Assembly: GCA_965372835.1 (NCBI GenBank)
Contig: CBDVDV010000004.1
Coordinates: 1 to 51,335, forward strand
DNA from: an uncultured bacterium
GTDB lineage: Bacteria > Planctomycetota > DG-23 > CBDVDV01
Reading direction: 5' to 3'
Length of the DNA stretch: 51,335 bases
Shown here: piece by piece, positions 7,004 to 51,301 of the stretch
Position numbering within the stretch: position 1 is the stretch's first letter
Layout: every line of letters begins with the position of its first letter
The notes under the pieces: model-generated
Seen by the model: the letters and a program-made list of their open reading frames with translations, nothing else
Told to the model about the DNA's origin: nothing
Database searches by the model: none
Position numbers and translations under genes: made by a program

Positions 7004-7081
7004 CGGGGTGTAGCTCAGTTTGGTTAGAGCGCAGCGTTCGGGACGCTGAGGTCGCTGGTTCAAATCCAGTCACCCCGACCA
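7004..7081 (+). tRNA. tRNA-Pro (anticodon CGG), CCA encoded
   Basis: Hand-folded cloverleaf. Acceptor CGGGGTG/CACCCCG; D arm GCTC..GAGC; anticodon stem CAGCG/CGCTG with loop TTCGGGA (CGG at positions 34-36); T arm GCTGG-TTCAAAT-CCAGT; discriminator A plus CCA. Confidence 0.9.
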
Positions 7082-42611: not shown

Positions 42612-42947
42612 ATGGCTTTCGAAGAAGTGTGTCGGCGCTGTGGTCGGTGTTGCGCCAGCAAGGTGCTCATTGGTGAAGAGGTGCATTACACGCCCTTTTC
42701 CTGTCGCTATCTGGATATGAAAACCCATCTATGCACGGTTTACGACCGGCGCCACGAAACCAACCCCGAGTGCCTGTCACTGGAAGAAGGCATACTGCTC
42801 GGGGTGTTTCCCGCTGACTGCCCGTACGTCCAGGATCGTCCCCACTACCGACCACCTCGCGAAGAGCATACCAGCGTGCGCTCGCTGTTCGCGCTGCTCA
42901 AACAGGCCGACGAAGACCCCAGCCGCCATTCAGGGGGGCGAGGGTGA
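42612..42947 (+). CDS. YkgJ-family cysteine-cluster protein (UPF0153)
   Basis: MAFEEVCRRCGRCCASKV...FSCRYLDMKTHLCTVYDRRHETNPEC. I use ATG 42612; the track start is 42036. Confidence 0.75.
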   Translation: MAFEEVCRRCGRCCASKVLIGEEVHYTPFSCRYLDMKTHLCTVYDRRHETNPECLSLEEGILLGVFPADCPYVQDRPHYRPPREEHTSVRSLFALLKQADEDPSRHSGGRG

Positions 42948-44530
42948 GCCTGAGCATTCGCGTGGCGCTGTTCGCTTCGCTGCTGGCCGTGGTCTCGATT
43001 GGCGTCGTGGCCAGTCTGGAATACCGATACGACACTGAGGCCTTGCTTCACGTTCTCGGGGACAGCCTCACCGACGTTGCCTCACTGTCGGCCAACTTGA
43101 TTTCAGGCGACATTGTTGCGGAGATTCCTCTGACGCCCGACGTCACGAACCCGGCATACGTCGCCGTGGAGAGGCAGTTAGCGTACCTGGGAGACTGTCT
43201 TACCTTCGAAGACAGGCGCTTCTGCGTGCTCGTGCGAGACGGCGACCAGTTGGTGGTTGTCGTGAGCGCCGCTCCCAGGATTGCCGCCGGCACGCGCCTT
43301 CCTCTGGTGCCTGAACAGGGGCCGGTACTGGCCGGGCTGACGGCTGGCCACATGCACCGTGACGATCCCGAGTTTGGCCACCTGGTCACTGCCTACGCCC
43401 CCATCCGCCGAAGCGACGGTGCGGTGGTGGGCCTACTGGCGGTGGAAACCACCCCCAAGGAGGTGCGCCAGCACCGCCAGGAGACCCTTAGGCGCACGGC
43501 CTACTTTGCCCTGGTGGGGGTGGCCTTTGCCACGGCGCTGAGTTTGCTATTTGTGCGGTCGCTGCTTGGGCCCGTGCGCATGTTGGTGCAGGTGGCTCGC
43601 AGGTTGGGTGAGGGTGATTACGAGACGCCCGTCGAGGGCCGTGGGCCTGGAGAGATCGGTGTGCTTGCCGGCACCATGGAGGAGATGCGTCAGGCGCTGC
43701 GACAGCGCATCAGCGAACTGGACAATCTGAACCTGGACCTGGCTCGGCGGGTGCAGGCCTCCATCATCCCCAAGCCGCAAAGGAGCGAGTGGATGGAGGT
43801 GGCCGTCGCCTACCGGCCCCTGGTGGGCGTCGGCGGCGACTACGCTCACATCTACTTCGCCGCCCCGGACGTCCTCTACGTCTGCATCGGCGACGTGACC
43901 GGTCACGGAGTGCCAGCGGCGCTGCTCGTCAACCGGGCCCACAGCCTTATCGATCAACTGGTCCACTTGCAGCTCTCCCCGGACGAGATGCTCCGCCGGA
44001 TTAACACCGCCGTCCTTTCCAGTTTCCAGCAGGAAGCCACCTTCATGACCTTTCTGTGTGCCAACATCAACCTCCAGTACGGCCAGGTACTCTTCGCCAA
44101 CGCCGCCCACCCGCCGGCCCTCCTCTTCCGCCGAGGGGACGGGGAGGTGACCACGGAAAGGTTCGAGTCCCAATGCACCTTCCTCGGCATCCAAGAAGAG
44201 TTGGTCTGTGACATCGACGCGCTCGGGGCGACCGACCTGGTGGCTGGCGACCGGCTCGTCCTCTACACCGACGGGCTCACCGAAGCCAGCCGGGGACCCC
44301 GGCAGTTCTTCGGTGAAGAGGGTCTGGTGCGGGTGGTGCGAGAAAACTTCCATTTGCTCCCACAGGAGCTGGCTGAGCGGTTGCTGGCTGAGGCCGAGGC
44401 GTTCGCCGGTGGCGAACTCCAGGACGATGTGCTGGTGCTCGTGATCCACATCCATAAGGCAGGAGAGGACCGCCCGCAAAAGGCTCGGGCGGTCCGCCCG
44501 GCGACAACTCCCAGCCCGTCCGCCGACTGA
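42944..44530 (+). CDS. Membrane sensor PP2C/SpoIIE-family serine phosphatase with HAMP domain
   Basis: Two TM helices flank a ~170-aa extracytoplasmic segment. HAMP (VRMLVQVARRLGEGDYETPV...IGVLAGTMEEM), then the SpoIIE core GGDYAHIY...IGDVTGHGVPAALL...LVLYTDGLTEA. The GTG start overlaps the ykgJ stop (GTGA). Confidence 0.85.
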   Translation: MSLSIRVALFASLLAVVSIGVVASLEYRYDTEALLHVLGDSLTDVASLSANLISGDIVAEIPLTPDVTNPAYVAVERQLAYLGDCLTFEDRRFCVLVRDGDQLVVVVSAAPRIAAGTRLPLVPEQGPVLAGLTAGHMHRDDPEFGHLVTAYAPIRRSDGAVVGLLAVETTPKEVRQHRQETLRRTAYFALVGVAFATALSLLFVRSLLGPVRMLVQVARRLGEGDYETPVEGRGPGEIGVLAGTMEEMRQALRQRISELDNLNLDLARRVQASIIPKPQRSEWMEVAVAYRPLVGVGGDYAHIYFAAPDVLYVCIGDVTGHGVPAALLVNRAHSLIDQLVHLQLSPDEMLRRINTAVLSSFQQEATFMTFLCANINLQYGQVLFANAAHPPALLFRRGDGEVTTERFESQCTFLGIQEELVCDIDALGATDLVAGDRLVLYTDGLTEASRGPRQFFGEEGLVRVVRENFHLLPQELAERLLAEAEAFAGGELQDDVLVLVIHIHKAGEDRPQKARAVRPATTPSPSAD

Positions 44531-44994: not shown

Positions 44995-46842
44995 ATGACA
45001 GACGCCCAGCCGGCCCTTATCCCACAACCGAAAGACCTGACCGCTCGTCGGGGCCAGTTCATTCTCCGCAGCAGGCTTGCCGTCGACATCGGTGGCGCGA
45101 GCGAAGCGGGGGATGGGCACGGGGTGCGCGTGCTCCTGAACGAGCTCTATCGGCTGCTCGGCCGTGCGACTCGTATGGGTGGTGAACGTCAGACCAGGTT
45201 CCACCGTGACTCACGGCGAAAGTCGCAGTGGCTTCGAGTCGCGCCGGAGGACGCCCGGGCGCAAGCACCCAAGCAGACAAGGCGCCTGCGAAAGGAAGGC
45301 TACGAGATCCGCGTGACGCCTCGCTCAATCGAGATCGTGGCCGGTGACTCGGCGGGGCTCCTCCACGGCGTCATGACCCTGCGCCAGTTGTCGGCGGGTG
45401 GAAAACGCATCCCCTGTGTCACCATTCGGGACTGGCCCGCGCTGGCACTGCGGGGCGTCCACTACGACCTCAAGGGGGTGATGCCCAAGTTCGATGCGCT
45501 GATGCAGTCGCTGGTGGAACTCTCCCGGCTCAAACTGAACTGCATCCTGCTCGAATACGAAGACAAGTTCCCCTGGAGCAGGGAATCGGGGTTGGCGTCA
45601 GCCCTGGCTTTGGGCGAGCGGCAGCTTCGGCGGTTCCTGGCGGAGGCCCGCGCCAGGCACATTCGCGTCATTCCCCTGGTGCAAAGCCTGGGCCACGCCG
45701 AGATGGTGCTCCGGCACAGGAAGTACGCCCGGCTCAGGGAGGTCCGCGACAACTTTTACCAGTACTGTCCCAGCAACCGGGGCTCCGTCGAACTGGTCAA
45801 GAGACTCATCGATGAGGTGGCTGAGTTCCATCCAGAGGAGCCCTTCTTCCACGTCGGCGCCGACGAGGCCTGGCTGCTGGGCACCTGCCCACGGTGTGAG
45901 CGTGCCGCCAGGAGAGTTGGCAGAAACGGGCTCTATCTCAAACACATGAAGCCGGTCTGGCAGCACGTCCTTTCGCTGGGGAAGAGGCCCATCACGTGGG
46001 ACGACATGCTTCGGCATTTCACCCTCAAGGAACTGAGGCAAGTGCCTCGAGACGTGGTGCTGATGTACTGGCTCTATAATCGGTTCGAACCCGACGTCGC
46101 CACCAACTTCCCTCACCTCCCCCGCTACCTCAAGCAGGGCTTCGACGTTCTGGGGGCCTCGGCGGCGAAGGGGGCCGACGGACGCTTCGCCAACCTTCCC
46201 AACTTCGATCGCCGACTCAGGAACGTCTTCGCCTGGGCCGGGGTCGCCCGGCGACACGGGATCGCCGGTGTCGTCTCCACGGCGTGGTCCCGCTACACGT
46301 ATCTCCTGGCCCCGTGCGAGCCCTTTGAGACCGTCTGGCTGAGTCTCGCCGGGTCTGCCGAGGCCTACTGGACCGCTCGGCCTCCCACCCCGGACGTCTT
46401 CGTCCGAAGGTTCCTTCGCCTGGAGGGAGGAGTGGCGGATGACCGACTTGCGGAACTGATTCTCCATCCGGGGCGACCTGGTTATGTCAGATTGGCAGAA
46501 GTTTTGAGGGTCCGGGCGGCCTCGGGCGATCGCCGGCGGGACTATTGGCTGCTTCTGTCGGCGCTGTGCGAACTCGAGGCCTGGATCGACCATTGCCAGG
46601 AGGTCGAAAAACAGGTCGTCCACCAACTTCCGTTGTCCGAAGCGGGTCGGCTCCCCCGAAGTTCCCGGAAGCGACTAAACGAACGCGTGAGGGGTGTGCT
46701 GGCGCGGGCTCGCGCACTTAAGCGTCGTCTCAGCAAGGAGTTACGGAAAGCCCTCCCCGGCGCTGAGGTCGAGGAGTTTCTGGCCAGTCGTTTGGACGGC
46801 TACGAAGCGGTGCTGGAGGGTCTGAGCGATGCCATCGGCTGA
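44995..46842 (+). CDS. GH20-family beta-N-acetylhexosaminidase-like glycoside hydrolase
   Basis: ALIPQPKDLTARRGQFIL (GH20 N-domain start), IRDWPALALRGVHYDL..., HVGADEAW. I use ATG 44995 with an AAAAGGAGA SD; the track start is 44671. Confidence 0.8.
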   Translation: MTDAQPALIPQPKDLTARRGQFILRSRLAVDIGGASEAGDGHGVRVLLNELYRLLGRATRMGGERQTRFHRDSRRKSQWLRVAPEDARAQAPKQTRRLRKEGYEIRVTPRSIEIVAGDSAGLLHGVMTLRQLSAGGKRIPCVTIRDWPALALRGVHYDLKGVMPKFDALMQSLVELSRLKLNCILLEYEDKFPWSRESGLASALALGERQLRRFLAEARARHIRVIPLVQSLGHAEMVLRHRKYARLREVRDNFYQYCPSNRGSVELVKRLIDEVAEFHPEEPFFHVGADEAWLLGTCPRCERAARRVGRNGLYLKHMKPVWQHVLSLGKRPITWDDMLRHFTLKELRQVPRDVVLMYWLYNRFEPDVATNFPHLPRYLKQGFDVLGASAAKGADGRFANLPNFDRRLRNVFAWAGVARRHGIAGVVSTAWSRYTYLLAPCEPFETVWLSLAGSAEAYWTARPPTPDVFVRRFLRLEGGVADDRLAELILHPGRPGYVRLAEVLRVRAASGDRRRDYWLLLSALCELEAWIDHCQEVEKQVVHQLPLSEAGRLPRSSRKRLNERVRGVLARARALKRRLSKELRKALPGAEVEEFLASRLDGYEAVLEGLSDAIG

Positions 46843-46909
46843 GACTGAAAGCGGACCGTAAAGGGGCTGGGCCGATAGAGAAAAAGACTGAGAAATCTGT
46901 GGTAATGAC

Positions 46910-46937
46910 TTGCAGGAAGTCGTAATTGGGGTATAAT
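46910..46937 (+). promoter_or_regulatory. Consensus-like sigma70 promoter (TTGCAG-16-TATAAT) driving the riboswitch-pilin transcript
   Basis: TTGCAG 46910-46915, a 16-nt spacer, TATAAT 46932-46937, preceded by the A-rich stretch 46877-46905 (UP-element-like). Confidence 0.6.
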
Positions 46938-46995
46938 ACTTATGGCGAGGGAAAGGCCGTCAGTACTGTCGAGGTGCAGGCGGCCGGGCTTCGTC

Positions 46996-47086
46996 CACGA
47001 CAAAGGCAAGCCGACCGAAAGGTCGGCTACGCAAAGCGACAGGACCTGAAGCCCGCCAGCCGGCGGGTATGGTGGCCTGGCTGCCG
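46996..47086 (+). promoter_or_regulatory. c-di-GMP-I (GEMM-I) riboswitch aptamer
   Basis: GGCAAGCC (47005-12); hairpin GACC-GAAA-GGUC (47013-24); ACGCAAAGC (47029-37); second helix CAGG.CC/GGCCUG with tetraloop-receptor-like CCUGAAG (47045-51) and UAUGG (47068-72) around the inner hairpin GCCCGCC-AGCC-GGCGGGU; 3' GCUGCC (47080-85) complementary to the 5' GGCA. Closely parallels the Vc2 aptamer as I recall it. Confidence 0.8.
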
Positions 47087-47108
47087 AAAGGATGGGGCAA
47101 TGCAGAGT

Positions 47109-47154
47109 GCCCGCAGGCTTGGTGATAGGCTGAGCATGCGGGCCTTTTCGTTTT
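47109..47154 (+). terminator. Intrinsic terminator forming the riboswitch expression platform
   Basis: GCCCGCA (47109-15) and TGCGGGC (47137-43) with an internally pairable 21-nt loop, followed by CTTTTCGTTTT (47144-54). Located 48 nt before ATG 47202. Confidence 0.6.
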
Positions 47155-47201
47155 GGGGAGCCGACCCGCCGGCGGGGCGGTCTCCCGGAGGTGCCAAAGA
47201 G

Positions 47202-47867
47202 ATGGGTGTTTTGAGCACAAGGCGGTGCCAGGCGGGCTTTACGCTGCTTGAACTGATGGTGGCCGTGGTGGTCATCGTGGTGGCCTTCTTCGGGCTGCTG
47301 CTCTCGCTTCACTACGGCAGCGTACTCAACGAGACGTCCCGGCAGTTGCGGACAGCCCATGAGTCCGCCCAACGAGCCCTGGAAGCGGTTCGGGCTTACG
47401 AGTTCGCGTTCATCTACCGGTCCTTCAACGCCGATACCAACGACGACCCGAACGGGCCGGGCATGGCCGAGAACGACCTCTCCCCCCTCAACGACGAATT
47501 CGAACGCGAGAGCGGAGGTACGCCCCTTGCGCCGCTGACGGCTTTGGGTGACGGTATAGGCAACAACTTCGTCGTGGACGGGCTGGCCCCCCGGGCCACA
47601 GACCCTGACGGTGTGGTCGGCGTCATTCTCTTCCCCGAGGCCGTGGACGCCGGTAACACCGTGCTCTCCGAGCAGGGGCAAACAACCCCCCCGTTTGATA
47701 TCTTTGGACCCCCTCGCGACCTGAACGAGAACGGGAGCGTGAACGACCTGAACGTCTCCGACGACTACAAGCGGTTGCCAGTCGCCGTGTTGGTGCAGTG
47801 GCAAGGCTCGTTTGGTGATGAGCGTGAGGTGCGAATGGACACGGTGCTTCATGCGAAGTTGCGGTAG
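47202..47867 (+). CDS. Type IV pilin-like / pseudopilin protein (prepilin-type N-terminal methylation motif)
   Basis: MGVLSTRRCQAG|FTLLELMVAVVVIVVAFFGLLL (G-1, F+1, E+5). GGAGG lies 10 nt upstream of ATG 47202. The track start 46926 would put ~100 aa in front of the cleavage motif and read through the riboswitch. Confidence 0.85.
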   Translation: MGVLSTRRCQAGFTLLELMVAVVVIVVAFFGLLLSLHYGSVLNETSRQLRTAHESAQRALEAVRAYEFAFIYRSFNADTNDDPNGPGMAENDLSPLNDEFERESGGTPLAPLTALGDGIGNNFVVDGLAPRATDPDGVVGVILFPEAVDAGNTVLSEQGQTTPPFDIFGPPRDLNENGSVNDLNVSDDYKRLPVAVLVQWQGSFGDEREVRMDTVLHAKLR

Positions 47868-47889
47868 AGCAGGGCAAGGAGGCTCTGTA

Positions 47890-48546
47890 ATGCAGTGTGG
47901 ATTGAAAGCGCCGGTGAGGGCGCCCGTCCAACGGCTCCGATGGATTTGGGGACGGGGACCTGGGTGTCGCCGACAGTCCCGGCAGTCGGGCTTCTCCCTT
48001 CTGGAGACGATGATCGCGGCGGCCATCCTGTCCATCTTGCTTATGGCGCTGATGGTCGTGCTGGTCCAGGGACAGAGCACCTTCGATACCCTGGCCACCC
48101 GGTCCAGCGCGCAGCTGCGAATCCAGATCGCCCTGGACAAGATGGTCAGGGAGATGCGCCTGGGGTCCTTGGGGAACCTCAGCAGCGGGAGCCCGCCGCA
48201 GTTCCTCATCGAGGGGCAGGCCTACGACAACGTGACCTTCATCCCGGCGGTTGGCGTGGTGGGCAGCGACGTGCAGTGGGGCAACCCGATTACGTATCGA
48301 TTCCAATATGATGCCAACGAGGAGACCACGCCTGGCGCCGATGACGATGGTGACGGTCTGACCGATGAGGGTGTCCTCATCCGGGGTCAGGGCGGCTCGG
48401 ACACTGTGATCTGCGGTCGGGTCACGGGGTTGAGTTTTACTCGTTCCAACGACCAACTAACGATCGAACTCGAGGCCTCTGCCAGAGACCACACCGGCCA
48501 TGTGCACAACTATACTGGGAAATCATCCGTCTCATTTCGTAATTGA
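47890..48546 (+). CDS. Type IV minor-pilin-like / pseudopilin protein (PilW/GspJ-like guess)
   Basis: ...RQSRQSG|FSLLETMIAAAILSILLMALMVVL. GGAGG lies 7 nt upstream of ATG 47890. Acidic DDDGDGLTDEG loop. Confidence 0.8.
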   Translation: MQCGLKAPVRAPVQRLRWIWGRGPGCRRQSRQSGFSLLETMIAAAILSILLMALMVVLVQGQSTFDTLATRSSAQLRIQIALDKMVREMRLGSLGNLSSGSPPQFLIEGQAYDNVTFIPAVGVVGSDVQWGNPITYRFQYDANEETTPGADDDGDGLTDEGVLIRGQGGSDTVICGRVTGLSFTRSNDQLTIELEASARDHTGHVHNYTGKSSVSFRN

Positions 48547-48593: not shown

Positions 48594-50030
48594 ATGCGAC
48601 ACAAGATCGAGTCGCAGCGCGGTACGGTGTTGATGGTGGCCATGATTCTGGTGCTGCTCCTGGCGGGGCTGGCCATGGCCTACGTGGCCATCACCGGCAG
48701 GCAGGCCGCCAGCGCCTACGTCAGTTACAAGAGTGACCGGGCGCTCTACCTGGCGGAGGCGGGCCTGGCCGATGCCATGTTCGATTTTGAGAACGGGGGA
48801 ACCGGCAACCTCGACCCCCAATCAGGGATGTTCGGCGGCACCTACACCACCACCACGGTCCCGACGGGGACGGACACCCTGGTCATGACCTCCCATGGCA
48901 CATTTGCTGACACTGAGCGCACGGTGGAAATCACGGCGTACAACGGCGTCCACCCGATGTTTCGACACGCCGTGTTTGCCGGCGATTCCTCCGACGACCC
49001 CGACTACGCCCTGGGGTTCGGAGGTGTGGACGACGGCGCCAATCAGCGGTGGCAGGACGAAGTGACTGGGGACGTCTACTCCGGCGAGGATATCGTCATA
49101 GCAGACGATGCCGAAATCGACGGCCAGCTCAGGGCTGAAGGTGAGATCGTAGGAGGCACGGGAACCTACGGGGCCCTTCCCATTCCCGACATTGCCGGCA
49201 TGGATTACCCCAATAACCACGACGTCAACGTGAACCAGCAGTTCGACGATTTCGGATACTCCACCTCGGTGGACGGCTACGGAACCGGCGACGCGGTGCC
49301 CGAAGACAACTCCGCTCACATCTTCCACAAGAACCCCTCGGATCGGCAAACCGAGTGTGGCATGACCCCGGGTGACGACTTCTTCATGGAAGATGTCTAC
49401 GAGCACTGTCAATCCTACAACACCCGAATCAGCGTCGCCCCGGGGGGTAACGACCAAGTGTACTTCGTCGAGGGTGACCTCTGGATTCACAACAAGAACA
49501 CCTACGGCTTCCAACTGAAGAACCCCGACAGTCACATCACCATCGTGGTCCAGGGGAGCATCCACATCGCCGATGACTTCCACTACCACAACGACGTCAA
49601 GAGCGGCGTGGCCTTCATCGCCATCAAGGCTCCCGGCGACTCGAACGGGGAGTACAGTGGGAACATCTACGTCGGCGACCCGGTCTTCGGTACCGTGCAA
49701 GAGATCAATGCCTTCCTCTACGCCGAGAACAACTTCATCGATGAGAACCTCGACGAAGGTGGTTCCGCCGAGTTCTACATCAACGGCATGATGAGCGCCG
49801 GCAACCACATCGCCATGAACCGTGACTTCGTCGGCAGCGGCTACTGGCAGGGCGCCTACCCGCACCGTACCTGGGTGTCCACTGACGAGGAAGGGACCCA
49901 CCATTCCAAGATGGTCATCGAACTCGACGACCGGATTTTTACCGGTGAGTTGATCCTGCCTGGCCTGCCCGAGATCGACCCCGGTACCGGTGAGTGGGTG
50001 ATCGTGGCCTGGCGCGAGACGAGATCGTAG
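48594..50030 (+). CDS. PilX/GspK-like large minor pilin-like protein
   Basis: QRGTVLMVAMILVLLLAGLAMAYVAI...DRALYLAEAGLADAM resembles the PilX N-terminal domain (no E5). GGAGG SD. 478 aa with a Gly/Asp-rich repeat-like middle. Confidence 0.75.
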   Translation: MRHKIESQRGTVLMVAMILVLLLAGLAMAYVAITGRQAASAYVSYKSDRALYLAEAGLADAMFDFENGGTGNLDPQSGMFGGTYTTTTVPTGTDTLVMTSHGTFADTERTVEITAYNGVHPMFRHAVFAGDSSDDPDYALGFGGVDDGANQRWQDEVTGDVYSGEDIVIADDAEIDGQLRAEGEIVGGTGTYGALPIPDIAGMDYPNNHDVNVNQQFDDFGYSTSVDGYGTGDAVPEDNSAHIFHKNPSDRQTECGMTPGDDFFMEDVYEHCQSYNTRISVAPGGNDQVYFVEGDLWIHNKNTYGFQLKNPDSHITIVVQGSIHIADDFHYHNDVKSGVAFIAIKAPGDSNGEYSGNIYVGDPVFGTVQEINAFLYAENNFIDENLDEGGSAEFYINGMMSAGNHIAMNRDFVGSGYWQGAYPHRTWVSTDEEGTHHSKMVIELDDRIFTGELILPGLPEIDPGTGEWVIVAWRETRS

Positions 50031-50140: not shown

Positions 50141-51301
50141 ATGGCCAAAAGGCGTTCCCCCGTAGGTTGGCTGGTTCCGTGCGCTCTCGTGGTCGGCATC
50201 CTCTTCCTGCTCTGTCTGCTGGGCTCGGTGGCTCAGGCTGATGTCATCTACCTGAAGAACAAGAGCACTATCGAAGGGGTCATCAAGCGGGAAACGGACA
50301 CCCAGGTGGTCATCGTCACCGACGCCGGTACCCTCTACATCGACCGGGCCGACATCGAGCGCATCGAACGGAAACGCTTTGAGCCCGTTGACATCCCCAG
50401 GCCCCAGGCTCCGCCCCCGCCTCAACCCGTCGTAGAACGGGCCGAAGCCACACCCACGCCTGAGCAGCCAGGGCCCAGGCCGACAGACAAACGCGAACTT
50501 CACTTTGATGCGCTCCAGGAACTGGACCTCTCACCCGTAAACTACTGGCTGCGCGCGCTTCTCGTCACCAAGAGCGAGACCGCCACGCAGGTCAGCCGAG
50601 ACCACGTAGGGTACAACCATACCGTCCTGGCTCCGCTGCGCGACAAATCGGGTTATCGGCTGACGGTGGAATCGGTCCTGCTTCGCTACAGCCGACGGCT
50701 TGATTCCTACCTGGTTATGGAGGTCATCACCAACCGCAAGTTCGAGCCTATCAGCTACACGGCCGAGTCGCTCGGTCGCCGATGGCACATCAAGGTGACC
50801 GGAGAAAAGAAGGGCGACGGACTGGTCCTGACCACCATTACCAACGAGGGTACGAGCCTCCGCACCATCGAGTACCCGGCCGACTCCTGTATGCTGGACA
50901 GCTCCATGTACCACCTACTTGCCGGGGGAGCCCTCTCTGCGGACAGCAAACGCCAGTACAAGTTCTTCGACCTTATCAGCGGCCTCAAGGGGGTCGAGCA
51001 GGTGGAGGTGGTGCGAGCCGAATCCGTTCGGGCGCTCGACCGCACCTTCGACACCTGGGTGGTCAAGAGCAGGACCCTGATGCCCGAGAGTCCGCCCATT
51101 GAGGTCCACCGTTGGATAAGCCAACCGACCGAGAGCCGACCCGCCGGCCGACTCTTGAAGGTGGAGGTCGGTGAAGGCGCCATCGTCTACCAGGCGACCA
51201 CTGAAGCCCAGGCTACCGCGGGCGTCAAAGAACTGGTCGACGCTTTGGGCCTCAGCAACCAACTCTTCGGCTCGGGCGGACCCGCAGGAGCCGGGGACTA
51301 A
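50141..51301 (+). CDS. Signal-anchored hypothetical protein with Pro-rich linker
   Basis: MAKRRSPVGWLVPCALVVGILFLLCLLGSVAQA; small beta-rich module DVIYLKNKSTIEGVIKRETDTQVVIVTDAGTLYIDRADIERIE; PRPQAPPPPQP linker; ~270-aa unrecognised C-terminal domain. Same strand as the pilin-like genes and 110 nt after them. Confidence 0.7.
   Translation: MAKRRSPVGWLVPCALVVGILFLLCLLGSVAQADVIYLKNKSTIEGVIKRETDTQVVIVTDAGTLYIDRADIERIERKRFEPVDIPRPQAPPPPQPVVERAEATPTPEQPGPRPTDKRELHFDALQELDLSPVNYWLRALLVTKSETATQVSRDHVGYNHTVLAPLRDKSGYRLTVESVLLRYSRRLDSYLVMEVITNRKFEPISYTAESLGRRWHIKVTGEKKGDGLVLTTITNEGTSLRTIEYPADSCMLDSSMYHLLAGGALSADSKRQYKFFDLISGLKGVEQVEVVRAESVRALDRTFDTWVVKSRTLMPESPPIEVHRWISQPTESRPAGRLLKVEVGEGAIVYQATTEAQATAGVKELVDALGLSNQLFGSGGPAGAGD

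Follow-up and report, generated by a model that had tools for sequence, protein, structure and literature searches.

Between a GH20 gene and a cluster of pilin-like genes in an uncultured planctomycete, a non-coding gap of 359 nt (positions 46843-47201) very probably contains a riboswitch for the second messenger cyclic di-GMP (c-di-GMP), which would act through a downstream transcription terminator on the pilin operon. The gap is part of contig CBDVDV010000004.1 (assembly GCA_965372835.1), and the whole stretch that was analysed, 51,335 nt read on the forward strand, is referred to as the window in the following. By covariance-model match, the element is a canonical class I c-di-GMP (c-di-GMP-I or GEMM-I) riboswitch, a regulator class which is already well known. 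The comparisons described below suggest that positions 46910-47204 form a self-contained regulatory module of a minor-pilin operon, in which a sigma70-type promoter would give rise to a leader of ~260 nt comprising the aptamer and then an intrinsic terminator. An earlier interpretation of the letters by themselves, termed the sequence-only reading here, had proposed an element of this kind, and all strings and coordinates that it quoted are present, its aptamer text being located at 46996-47086.

The assignment allows the gap, which gene callers would leave empty or could overrun, to be annotated with high confidence as cis-regulatory, and makes c-di-GMP the likely signal for a minor-pilin operon that includes a ComZ-like protein, in a clade of uncultured planctomycetes. 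Pili and their regulation by second messengers are poorly studied in Planctomycetota, and we know of no riboswitch-controlled pilus genes reported from this phylum. Knowledge of the riboswitch class itself is unchanged; modest extras are a conserved hairpin which may oppose the closing helix of the aptamer as part of a relay, and the ComZ-like cargo.

Aptamer, promoter and terminator

The Rfam model RF01051 (c-di-GMP-I) matches the plus strand over its full length (model positions 1-87 of 87) with 53.1 bits against a gathering score of 35, and with an E-value of 1.2e-7 for the whole window on both strands. This is the sole riboswitch match in the 51 kb; the comparison of the entire window with Rfam 15 at curated thresholds returned only two matches, the other being a tRNA gene at 7004-7078 (68 bits). 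The control models named in the sequence-only reading remained silent, as neither 46800-47300 nor 46980-47105 matched c-di-GMP-II at E<=10, and unrelated families gave nothing credible at E<=10 in permissive scans of the gap. Compared with shuffled sequences, the fold of the leader reaches z = -4.0.

Conservation was assessed in an alignment (A2) of ten leaders from Planctomycetota metagenomes, which extends from the predicted transcription start to the terminator and from which a variable insert in the terminator was spliced out; all pairing percentages given below refer to the cells of this alignment. The ten leaders keep the entire module, consisting of the promoter, a 5' hairpin (P0), a 9-bp closing helix (P1), the aptamer, a linker and the terminator. 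The whole structure (P0 stem, P1, aptamer helices and terminator base) is paired in 94.5% of cells, compared with 25-42% when slid, with compensatory changes in eight pairs, and RNAalifold recovers P0, P1, aptamer and terminator together without guidance. Within the aptamer, the two helices are 97% and 90% paired, the first hairpin (97.1%) displaying covariation, and the ligand- and tertiary-contact nucleotides are all intact. The GAAA tetraloop (47017-20) on a 7-bp stem and the near-canonical receptor (CCUGAAG 47045-51 / UAUGG 47068-72) had been recognized correctly beforehand; in the relative L001, the receptor is the fully canonical CCUAAG. Where the sequence-only reading had closed the aptamer with a 3' GGC-UGCC, P1 is instead composed of an inner part of two pairs (C46998-G47086 and G46999-C47085) and an outer part of nine pairs (Table 1), the latter paired in 97.8% of cells and varying across leaders from C-G to U-A, from G.U to G-C and from U.G to U-A.

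The promoter proposed in the sequence-only reading is likewise retained in the relatives. Its -35 hexamer TTGCAG (46910-46915) and its -10 hexamer TATAAT (46932-46937) are separated by 16 nt, and all ten leaders carry TTGC(A/G)N and TATAAT without exception, around a spacer of 16-17 nt whose sequence varies. TATAAT occurs only twice, on either strand, in the window with its GC content of 64.6%, and is accompanied by a TTG-type -35 only here; two other sites attain 11 of 12 consensus matches, so that the earlier description as one of the best sigma70-like sites is fair. The -10 matches the consensus in six of six positions and the -35 in three of six, and a strict scanner rejects the site. Simple promoter and terminator scanners reported nothing in 46000-48000, because the -35 is only 3/6 and because the terminator stem is interrupted, with an apparent loop above the scanner limit; we attribute this silence to strict rules and do not count it against either element. 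As detailed below, the module goes with the first prepilin gene whatever its upstream neighbour, which argues for a promoter of its own, and a putative sigma70-type promoter in this position is supported by conservation.

Downstream of the aptamer, GCCCGCA (47109-47115) and UGCGGGC (47137-47143) enclose 21 nt and are followed by CUUUUCGUUUU (47144-47154), the hairpin folding at -23.2 kcal/mol. The base of the stem is 95.4% paired and nearly invariant, and a U-rich tail is found in 10 of 10 leaders. A GC-rich hairpin directly before a U-tract supports the prediction of an intrinsic (Rho-independent) terminator, again in line with the sequence-only reading. In seven relatives, the stem carries a GC-rich insert of 65-70 nt, which results in hairpins of -49 to -66 kcal/mol (L087 2190-2291, L086 2091-2194, L001 3392-3492, L171 391-491, L003 4369-4467, L005 2810-2899 and L167 2246-2344). 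Conservation in these terminators is confined to the stem base and a short GCCG/CGGC extension, and no conserved sequence or structure and no Rfam family match was found in the insert of the seven.

The distribution of the element was followed with R1, a covariance model of the P1-closed aptamer, which was run over the window and 171 loci (~1.4 Mb). R1 scores 112-131 bits in 13 of 13 close-clade loci that include the region, all of which share 52-93% identity in the ComZ-like protein, and the Rfam aptamer is above threshold in L001, L003, L005, L086, L087 and L088 (39-50 bits). A single distant match, L026 (40.2 bits), is confirmed by Rfam with 46.4 bits, and an Rfam scan of twenty other distant loci found no aptamer; the link between riboswitch and pilins therefore belongs to one clade and at least one other lineage, and not to the whole gene family. 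The L026 element (23-150) comes from a distant lineage with 39% identity in the ComZ-like protein, has a GAGA tetraloop and lacks the canonical receptor. Its 3' flank passes directly into a Shine-Dalgarno sequence and start codon (AAGGAGGUG-N7-AUG), an arrangement that points to control of translation instead of a terminator platform.

Gene order also varies within the close clade. The locus L088 starts with the same GH20 C-terminus and continues with the ComZ-like gene, the promoter-riboswitch-terminator module and the pilin, and L086 and L087 are arranged similarly. Even in these rearranged operons, the module is always found directly before the first prepilin gene. The ComZ-like gene of L086-L088 is located upstream of the riboswitch and would thus be outside its control.

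Table 1. Predicted regulatory elements and genes of the module and the adjoining pilin operon (window positions)
Feature	Position	Strand	Basis or remark
A-rich tract (GAAAAAG...)	46880..46899	+	At similar distance upstream in ten leaders; possibly UP-element-like
Promoter TTGCAG/TATAAT	46910..46937	+	Hexamers conserved; predicted transcription start ~46943-46945
P0 hairpin	46944..46995	+	Base GGCGAGG 46944-50 with CUUCGUC 46989-95; upper stem 46955-61 with 46979-85
P1 outer 5' strand GCUUCGUCC	46988..46996	+	Pairing counts and RNAalifold
c-di-GMP-I (GEMM-I) aptamer	46995..47088	+	RF01051 full-length, contacts, tetraloop/receptor
P1 outer 3' strand GGAUGGGGC	47090..47098	+	47093-47098 common to anti-terminator
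Candidate anti-terminator AT3	47093..47121	+	47093-47103 (UGGGGCAAUGC) with 47113-47121 (GCAGGCUUG)
Intrinsic terminator, stem GCCCGCAGGCUUGG.../...CUGAGCAUGCGGGC and U-tract CUUUUCGUUUU	47109..47154	+	Fold and conservation
Post-terminator hairpin	47155..47186	+	Sequence and fold
Shine-Dalgarno GGAGG	47187..47191	+	Sequence and fold
Start codon ATG	47202..47204	+	Sequence and fold
First prepilin-type gene, 221 aa	47202..47867	+	MGVLSTRRCQAG then FTLLELM... (cleavage between); PF07963 N_methyl 29.1 bits, TIGR02532
Second prepilin-type gene	47812..48546	+	PF07963 30.5 bits (residues 56-81 of listed open reading frame), TIGR02532
478-aa pilin-like protein	48594..50030	+	Long N-terminal helix and beta-solenoid, predicted ComZ-like fold
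Fourth gene of putative operon, secreted, weakly DUF3108-like	50141..51301	+	PF11306 21.3 bits, below cut-off 26

Anti-terminator candidates and the sign of the switch

In the consensus fold, the P1-closed aptamer is present alongside the terminator, with which it has no overlap, and regulation would therefore need an anti-terminator which competes with both. Four candidates were compared. The pairing suggested in the sequence-only reading, between GCGGG of the aptamer and CCCGC of the terminator 5' arm, can be lengthened in the window to a duplex of 12 bp (47058-70 with 47107-19, p 0.83, -23.5 kcal/mol) and was rejected as a general mechanism, as the tip of the second aptamer helix (P2) on which it depends is unconserved, the window is only marginally above shuffled leaders (6 of 100 are as good), and most relatives are weaker than their own shuffles. 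A hairpin of the window type, GGGGCA:UGCCC (AT2), is paired in 78% of cells and loses its two central pairs in six of the ten leaders. A third candidate, a long-range helix from the 5' end of the leader, was also rejected and is considered below together with the opposite sign of the switch.

The remaining candidate, AT3, is composed of eight pairs (U47093.G47121, G47094.U47120, G47095.U47119, G47097-C47118, C47098-G47117, U47101-A47115, G47102-C47114 and C47103-G47113) and is paired in 97.5% of cells, compared with 12-41% for a slid partner. AT3 shares six nucleotides with the P1 3' strand and nine with the terminator 5' arm, accounts for the conserved AUGC in the linker, and shows one compensatory change, from U-A to C-G, in L088. 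As an observation in its own right, the best complementarity between the upstream leader (46943-47105 in the window) and the terminator 5' arm is below that of dinucleotide shuffles in most leaders, the shuffles being at least as strong in 100 of 100 cases for L003, in 90 of 100 for both L088 and L005, and in 87 of 100 for L171. This gives the impression that the leaders avoid strong competitors of the terminator arm.

At the 5' end, the upper stem of P0 is paired in 92.4% of cells, with compensatory changes in four pairs, and its base in 89.9%, where the changes are one-sided only (G.U to A-U); G to A variants in the 5' strand preserve the pairing of the base. The 3' strand of the P0 base is common to the 5' strand of P1, which makes the base a potential 'anti-P1' helix. 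The P0 base, P1, AT3 and the terminator (47109-43 plus U-tract) are thus four conserved helices which overlap in series. In the absence of ligand, the P0 base would sequester the P1 5' strand and thereby leave the P1 3' strand free to form AT3, so that RNA polymerase could proceed into the pilin genes. Upon binding of c-di-GMP, P1 would close, AT3 would be blocked and the terminator could fold, ending transcription in an OFF switch.

This serial overlap suggests that c-di-GMP favours termination, and on this ground we lean towards an OFF switch, the sign being what we infer from the arrangement of the helices; a switch of some other sign, or of none, appears unlikely. The sequence-only reading had arrived at the same OFF logic, flagged as speculative, through the aptamer pairing rejected above; that pairing falls, and the logic is preserved by AT3 as a different, conserved candidate. 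In six of the ten leaders, the state with P0 base and AT3 and the state with P1 and aptamer are within ~3 kcal/mol of each other. The more specific proposal, in which P0 is a functional anti-P1 element and a four-helix relay allows c-di-GMP to repress a tip-pilin operon with a ComZ-like protein, is put forward as tentative and may well prove wrong. To our knowledge, a four-helix relay with an anti-P1 hairpin has no earlier description among GEMM-I riboswitches.

Several points weigh against the OFF switch and its relay. With a mean column identity of 83%, the leaders are so close to each other that covariation has limited power, and the P0 base is very weak in three of the ten (L087, L171 and L003). 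AT3 is weak at -5 to -9 kcal/mol, compared with -23 to -66 kcal/mol for the terminators, and its covariation is not significant against shuffles (334/500), variation being low. Without constraints, the nascent RNA has a minimum-energy fold below both model states, and modelled 'ligand binding' raises the accessibility of the terminator 5' arm in about half of the leaders only, with no consistent sign across them. In the full-length RNA, the terminator forms in every thermodynamic state, so that a decision could only be made kinetically. That c-di-GMP would repress pilins is furthermore contrary to the better-known activation of type IV pili, as for Clostridioides difficile pilA1. Finally, ligand binding, the transcription start, termination and the role of the anti-terminator are deduced from sequence and folding.

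The strongest competing view accepts the same riboswitch with the ON sign, where c-di-GMP prevents termination and high c-di-GMP induces the pilins as in pilA1. We regard it as rather unlikely, and the route by which it could operate as no more probable: P1 would displace the P0 base, and the freed GCGAGGG would pair with CCCGC of the terminator 5' arm, which is the third candidate mentioned above. Such a sign would agree with the general tendency of c-di-GMP to promote pili and adhesion and with the Bacillus thuringiensis riboswitch Bc2, a class I ON switch (PMC6366702). When P1 and the aptamer are enforced, the 5' end of the window's nascent RNA does pair with the terminator arm, and the same long-range helix appears in the minimum-energy folds of L171 and L167. 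This helix, however, is limited to 5 bp with a bulge, and the natural G to A changes in alignment columns 4 and 8 keep the P0 base intact and place an A opposite C in the long-range helix. The P1-closed aptamer and the terminator, as noted, coexist in the consensus fold, and in those leaders in which the accessibility of the arm shifts, modelled binding exposes the arm further instead of hiding it.

If the OFF relay is true, it would link c-di-GMP to competence-like or adhesive pili in Planctomycetota. The ten aligned leaders additionally represent a compact natural variant set, in which the P1 strands are tuned by G.U to A-U changes and the terminators occur with or without the insert of 65-70 nt, and which could be used for testing the coupling of P1 to termination in class I c-di-GMP riboswitches.

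Ligand class and other readings of the gap

Alignment to the model places G47005, A47033 and C47084 at the ligand-contact positions G20, A47 and C92 of the Vibrio cholerae aptamer Vc2, a numbering that follows in part from the Vc2 sequence; all ten leaders agree at these three positions. A47 intercalates as a ligand contact. G20 recognizes G-alpha and C92 pairs with G-beta, whereas riboswitches for cyclic GMP-AMP (cGAMP) have an A at position 20 (PMC6140456). The G at this position is kept in the window and in every relative, by which the GEMM-Ib type with its A is not represented here, and c-di-GMP is consequently the expected ligand rather than cGAMP, as the sequence-only reading had suggested, with some reserve, from the G at the start of GGCAA.

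A different cyclic dinucleotide, either the 3',3'-cGAMP of GEMM-Ib or whatever ligand a variant class recognizes, is distinctly improbable as the signal. GEMM-I aptamers that are one nucleotide apart can switch ligand (PMC6140456), and in the permissive scans clan competition retained the variant model c-di-GMP-I-GGC (RF03167) with an E-value slightly lower than that of RF01051. The score of the variant model, however, is 46.5 bits and hence below its gathering score of 59, and its consensus GACGCGAAgC has a G where the window (UACGCAAAGC) has A47033. For the GGC and UAU variants, we assume a definition drawn in part from the RF03167 consensus, the main text of PMC5737381 containing none. Wild-type Vc2, which carries G20, binds c-di-GMP with a picomolar dissociation constant and cGAMP with one of 10 uM (PMC6140456), a preference that the G47005 of the window would be expected to share.

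It is highly improbable that the aptamer is a decayed or non-regulatory relic and that the terminator serves as a constitutive attenuator or terminates the GH20 transcript, even though about a third of the predicted c-di-GMP riboswitches of C. difficile are non-functional (PMC6366702) and the terminator is present in all full-length thermodynamic states. Conservation of the leader, with 83-86% nucleotide identity, far exceeds that of the ComZ-like protein encoded at the same loci, which shows 52-93% amino-acid identity; the contact nucleotides of the leader are intact and its paired positions vary in a compensatory fashion. The terminator, moreover, is situated downstream of a conserved promoter and ~300 nt past the GH20 stop, and the module accompanies the pilin gene at loci in which GH20 is no longer adjacent.

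After the GH20 open reading frame (ORF), which ends at 46842, the ATG at 47202 is the first credible start. The frame of the first pilin is open upstream across the entire riboswitch to a TTG at 46926 (313-aa ORF, 46926-47867), so that automatic gene prediction could include the riboswitch in the pilin gene. That the leader encodes such an N-terminal extension can be dismissed, as GGAGG 10 nt before ATG 47202 and the typical 12-residue prepilin leader which results from that start speak for the shorter gene, insertions in the relatives are not multiples of three (terminators of 35 nt vs 90-104 nt), substitutions track base-pairing and not codon structure, and gene calls in the relatives begin after the terminator.

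The pilin operon and comparison with known systems

A second stable hairpin follows the terminator and leaves the Shine-Dalgarno sequence uncovered (Table 1). Its palindromic core CCCGCCGGCGGG resembles the tip of P2 in the aptamer (CCCGCCAGCCGGCGGG, 47052-67), and L088 has a similar hairpin at the equivalent place after the terminator, with changed stem letters.

The prepilin-type nature of the downstream genes, noted in the sequence-only reading, is confirmed by PF07963 and TIGR02532, both genes scoring above the PF07963 cut-off and containing a motif of the G/FxxxE type. The true start of the second is probably later than listed, shortly before GFSLLET. The third product, of 478 aa, belongs to no Pfam or NCBIfam family, and a single-protein search of representative genomes found no relative. 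By alignment-based search, more than 240 homologs were found, of which the named ones are all from metagenome-assembled genomes of Planctomycetota, two being labelled 'PilX' by the Joint Genome Institute. Its AlphaFold (AF2) model has a predicted local distance difference test score (pLDDT) of 84.2, and the only significant match in the PDB is ComZ, a large pilin associated with competence in Thermus (6qvi; Foldseek E 1e-9, probability 1.0, template-modelling (TM) score ~0.3, identity 11-12%). The best explanation of this gene set is a minor-pilin operon with two prepilins and a large pilin whose modelled fold is ComZ-like. A gene in the position of the fourth member is also found in L164 and L167. 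In L001 (7777-12127), L003 (9019-13269) and L166 (2864-6473), the pilin cluster is followed by a conserved trio on the opposite strand, encoding a 375-378-aa protein, a radical SAM/SPASM protein and a ~560-aa protein; the window ends earlier.

On the upstream side, the GH20 gene (PF02838/PF00728) is preceded by genes that include a HAMP-SpoIIE (PP2C-type) phosphatase at 42944-44530, two genes upstream, and the same order of phosphatase and GH20 is found syntenically in L003 and L004. The top NCBIfam similarity of the phosphatase is the biofilm regulator phosphatase SiaA, far under the model cut-off. When 30 other ORFs of the window were scanned for protein families, no genes of the GGDEF/EAL, PilZ or pilus-assembly type emerged, and the remainder of the window is composed of housekeeping genes.

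The name GEMM derives from the association of these riboswitches with environment, membrane and motility genes (PMC6366702). Full-text literature searches returned no report of c-di-GMP-I riboswitches in Planctomycetota, which is weak evidence of absence, the Rfam taxonomic listing being unchecked. The window element shares with Vc2 and the RF01051 family the two-helix architecture, the GAAA tetraloop docking in a receptor of the 11-nt type, the equivalents of G20, A47 and C92, the ACGCAAAGC junction, the closing helix P1 and the position in the 5' untranslated region of a surface or 'environment' gene. It differs in its host, an uncultured planctomycete, in one extra G in the receptor (CCUGAAG), and in an unusually long P1 (2 + 9 bp) whose 5' strand is shared with P0, outside the Rfam model. 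The GEMM-Ib cGAMP riboswitches of Geobacter (e.g. Gs1761) belong to the same Rfam clan, have the same fold and are likewise found before pilin-like or extracellular-function genes, but carry an A instead of the G at the equivalent of position 20.

On the protein side, ComZ of Thermus thermophilus (6qvi) combines a pilin-like N-terminal helix with a beta-solenoid, as predicted for the third operon product; at the identity and TM score given above, the planctomycete protein is likened to it by fold alone and not by DNA uptake.

The closest functional parallels are found in C. difficile. The riboswitch Cdi-2-4 upstream of pilA1 is, like the window element, a terminator-based c-di-GMP riboswitch directly before a type IV pilin gene, but it belongs to class II, of which the window has no match, and is an ON switch (PMC6366702). 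Of the class I c-di-GMP riboswitches in that species, seven are functional, and these are terminator-based OFF switches (PMC6366702), among them Cd1 (Cdi-1-3); in Cd1 and other class I OFF switches (flgB etc.) a class I aptamer is followed by an intrinsic terminator, as in the window. Termination favoured by c-di-GMP has been demonstrated there (PMC6366702) and would apply to the window if the OFF sign holds, with the differences that flagellar genes are regulated in C. difficile and pilins in the planctomycete, and that the relay of the latter would add a 5' anti-P1 helix.

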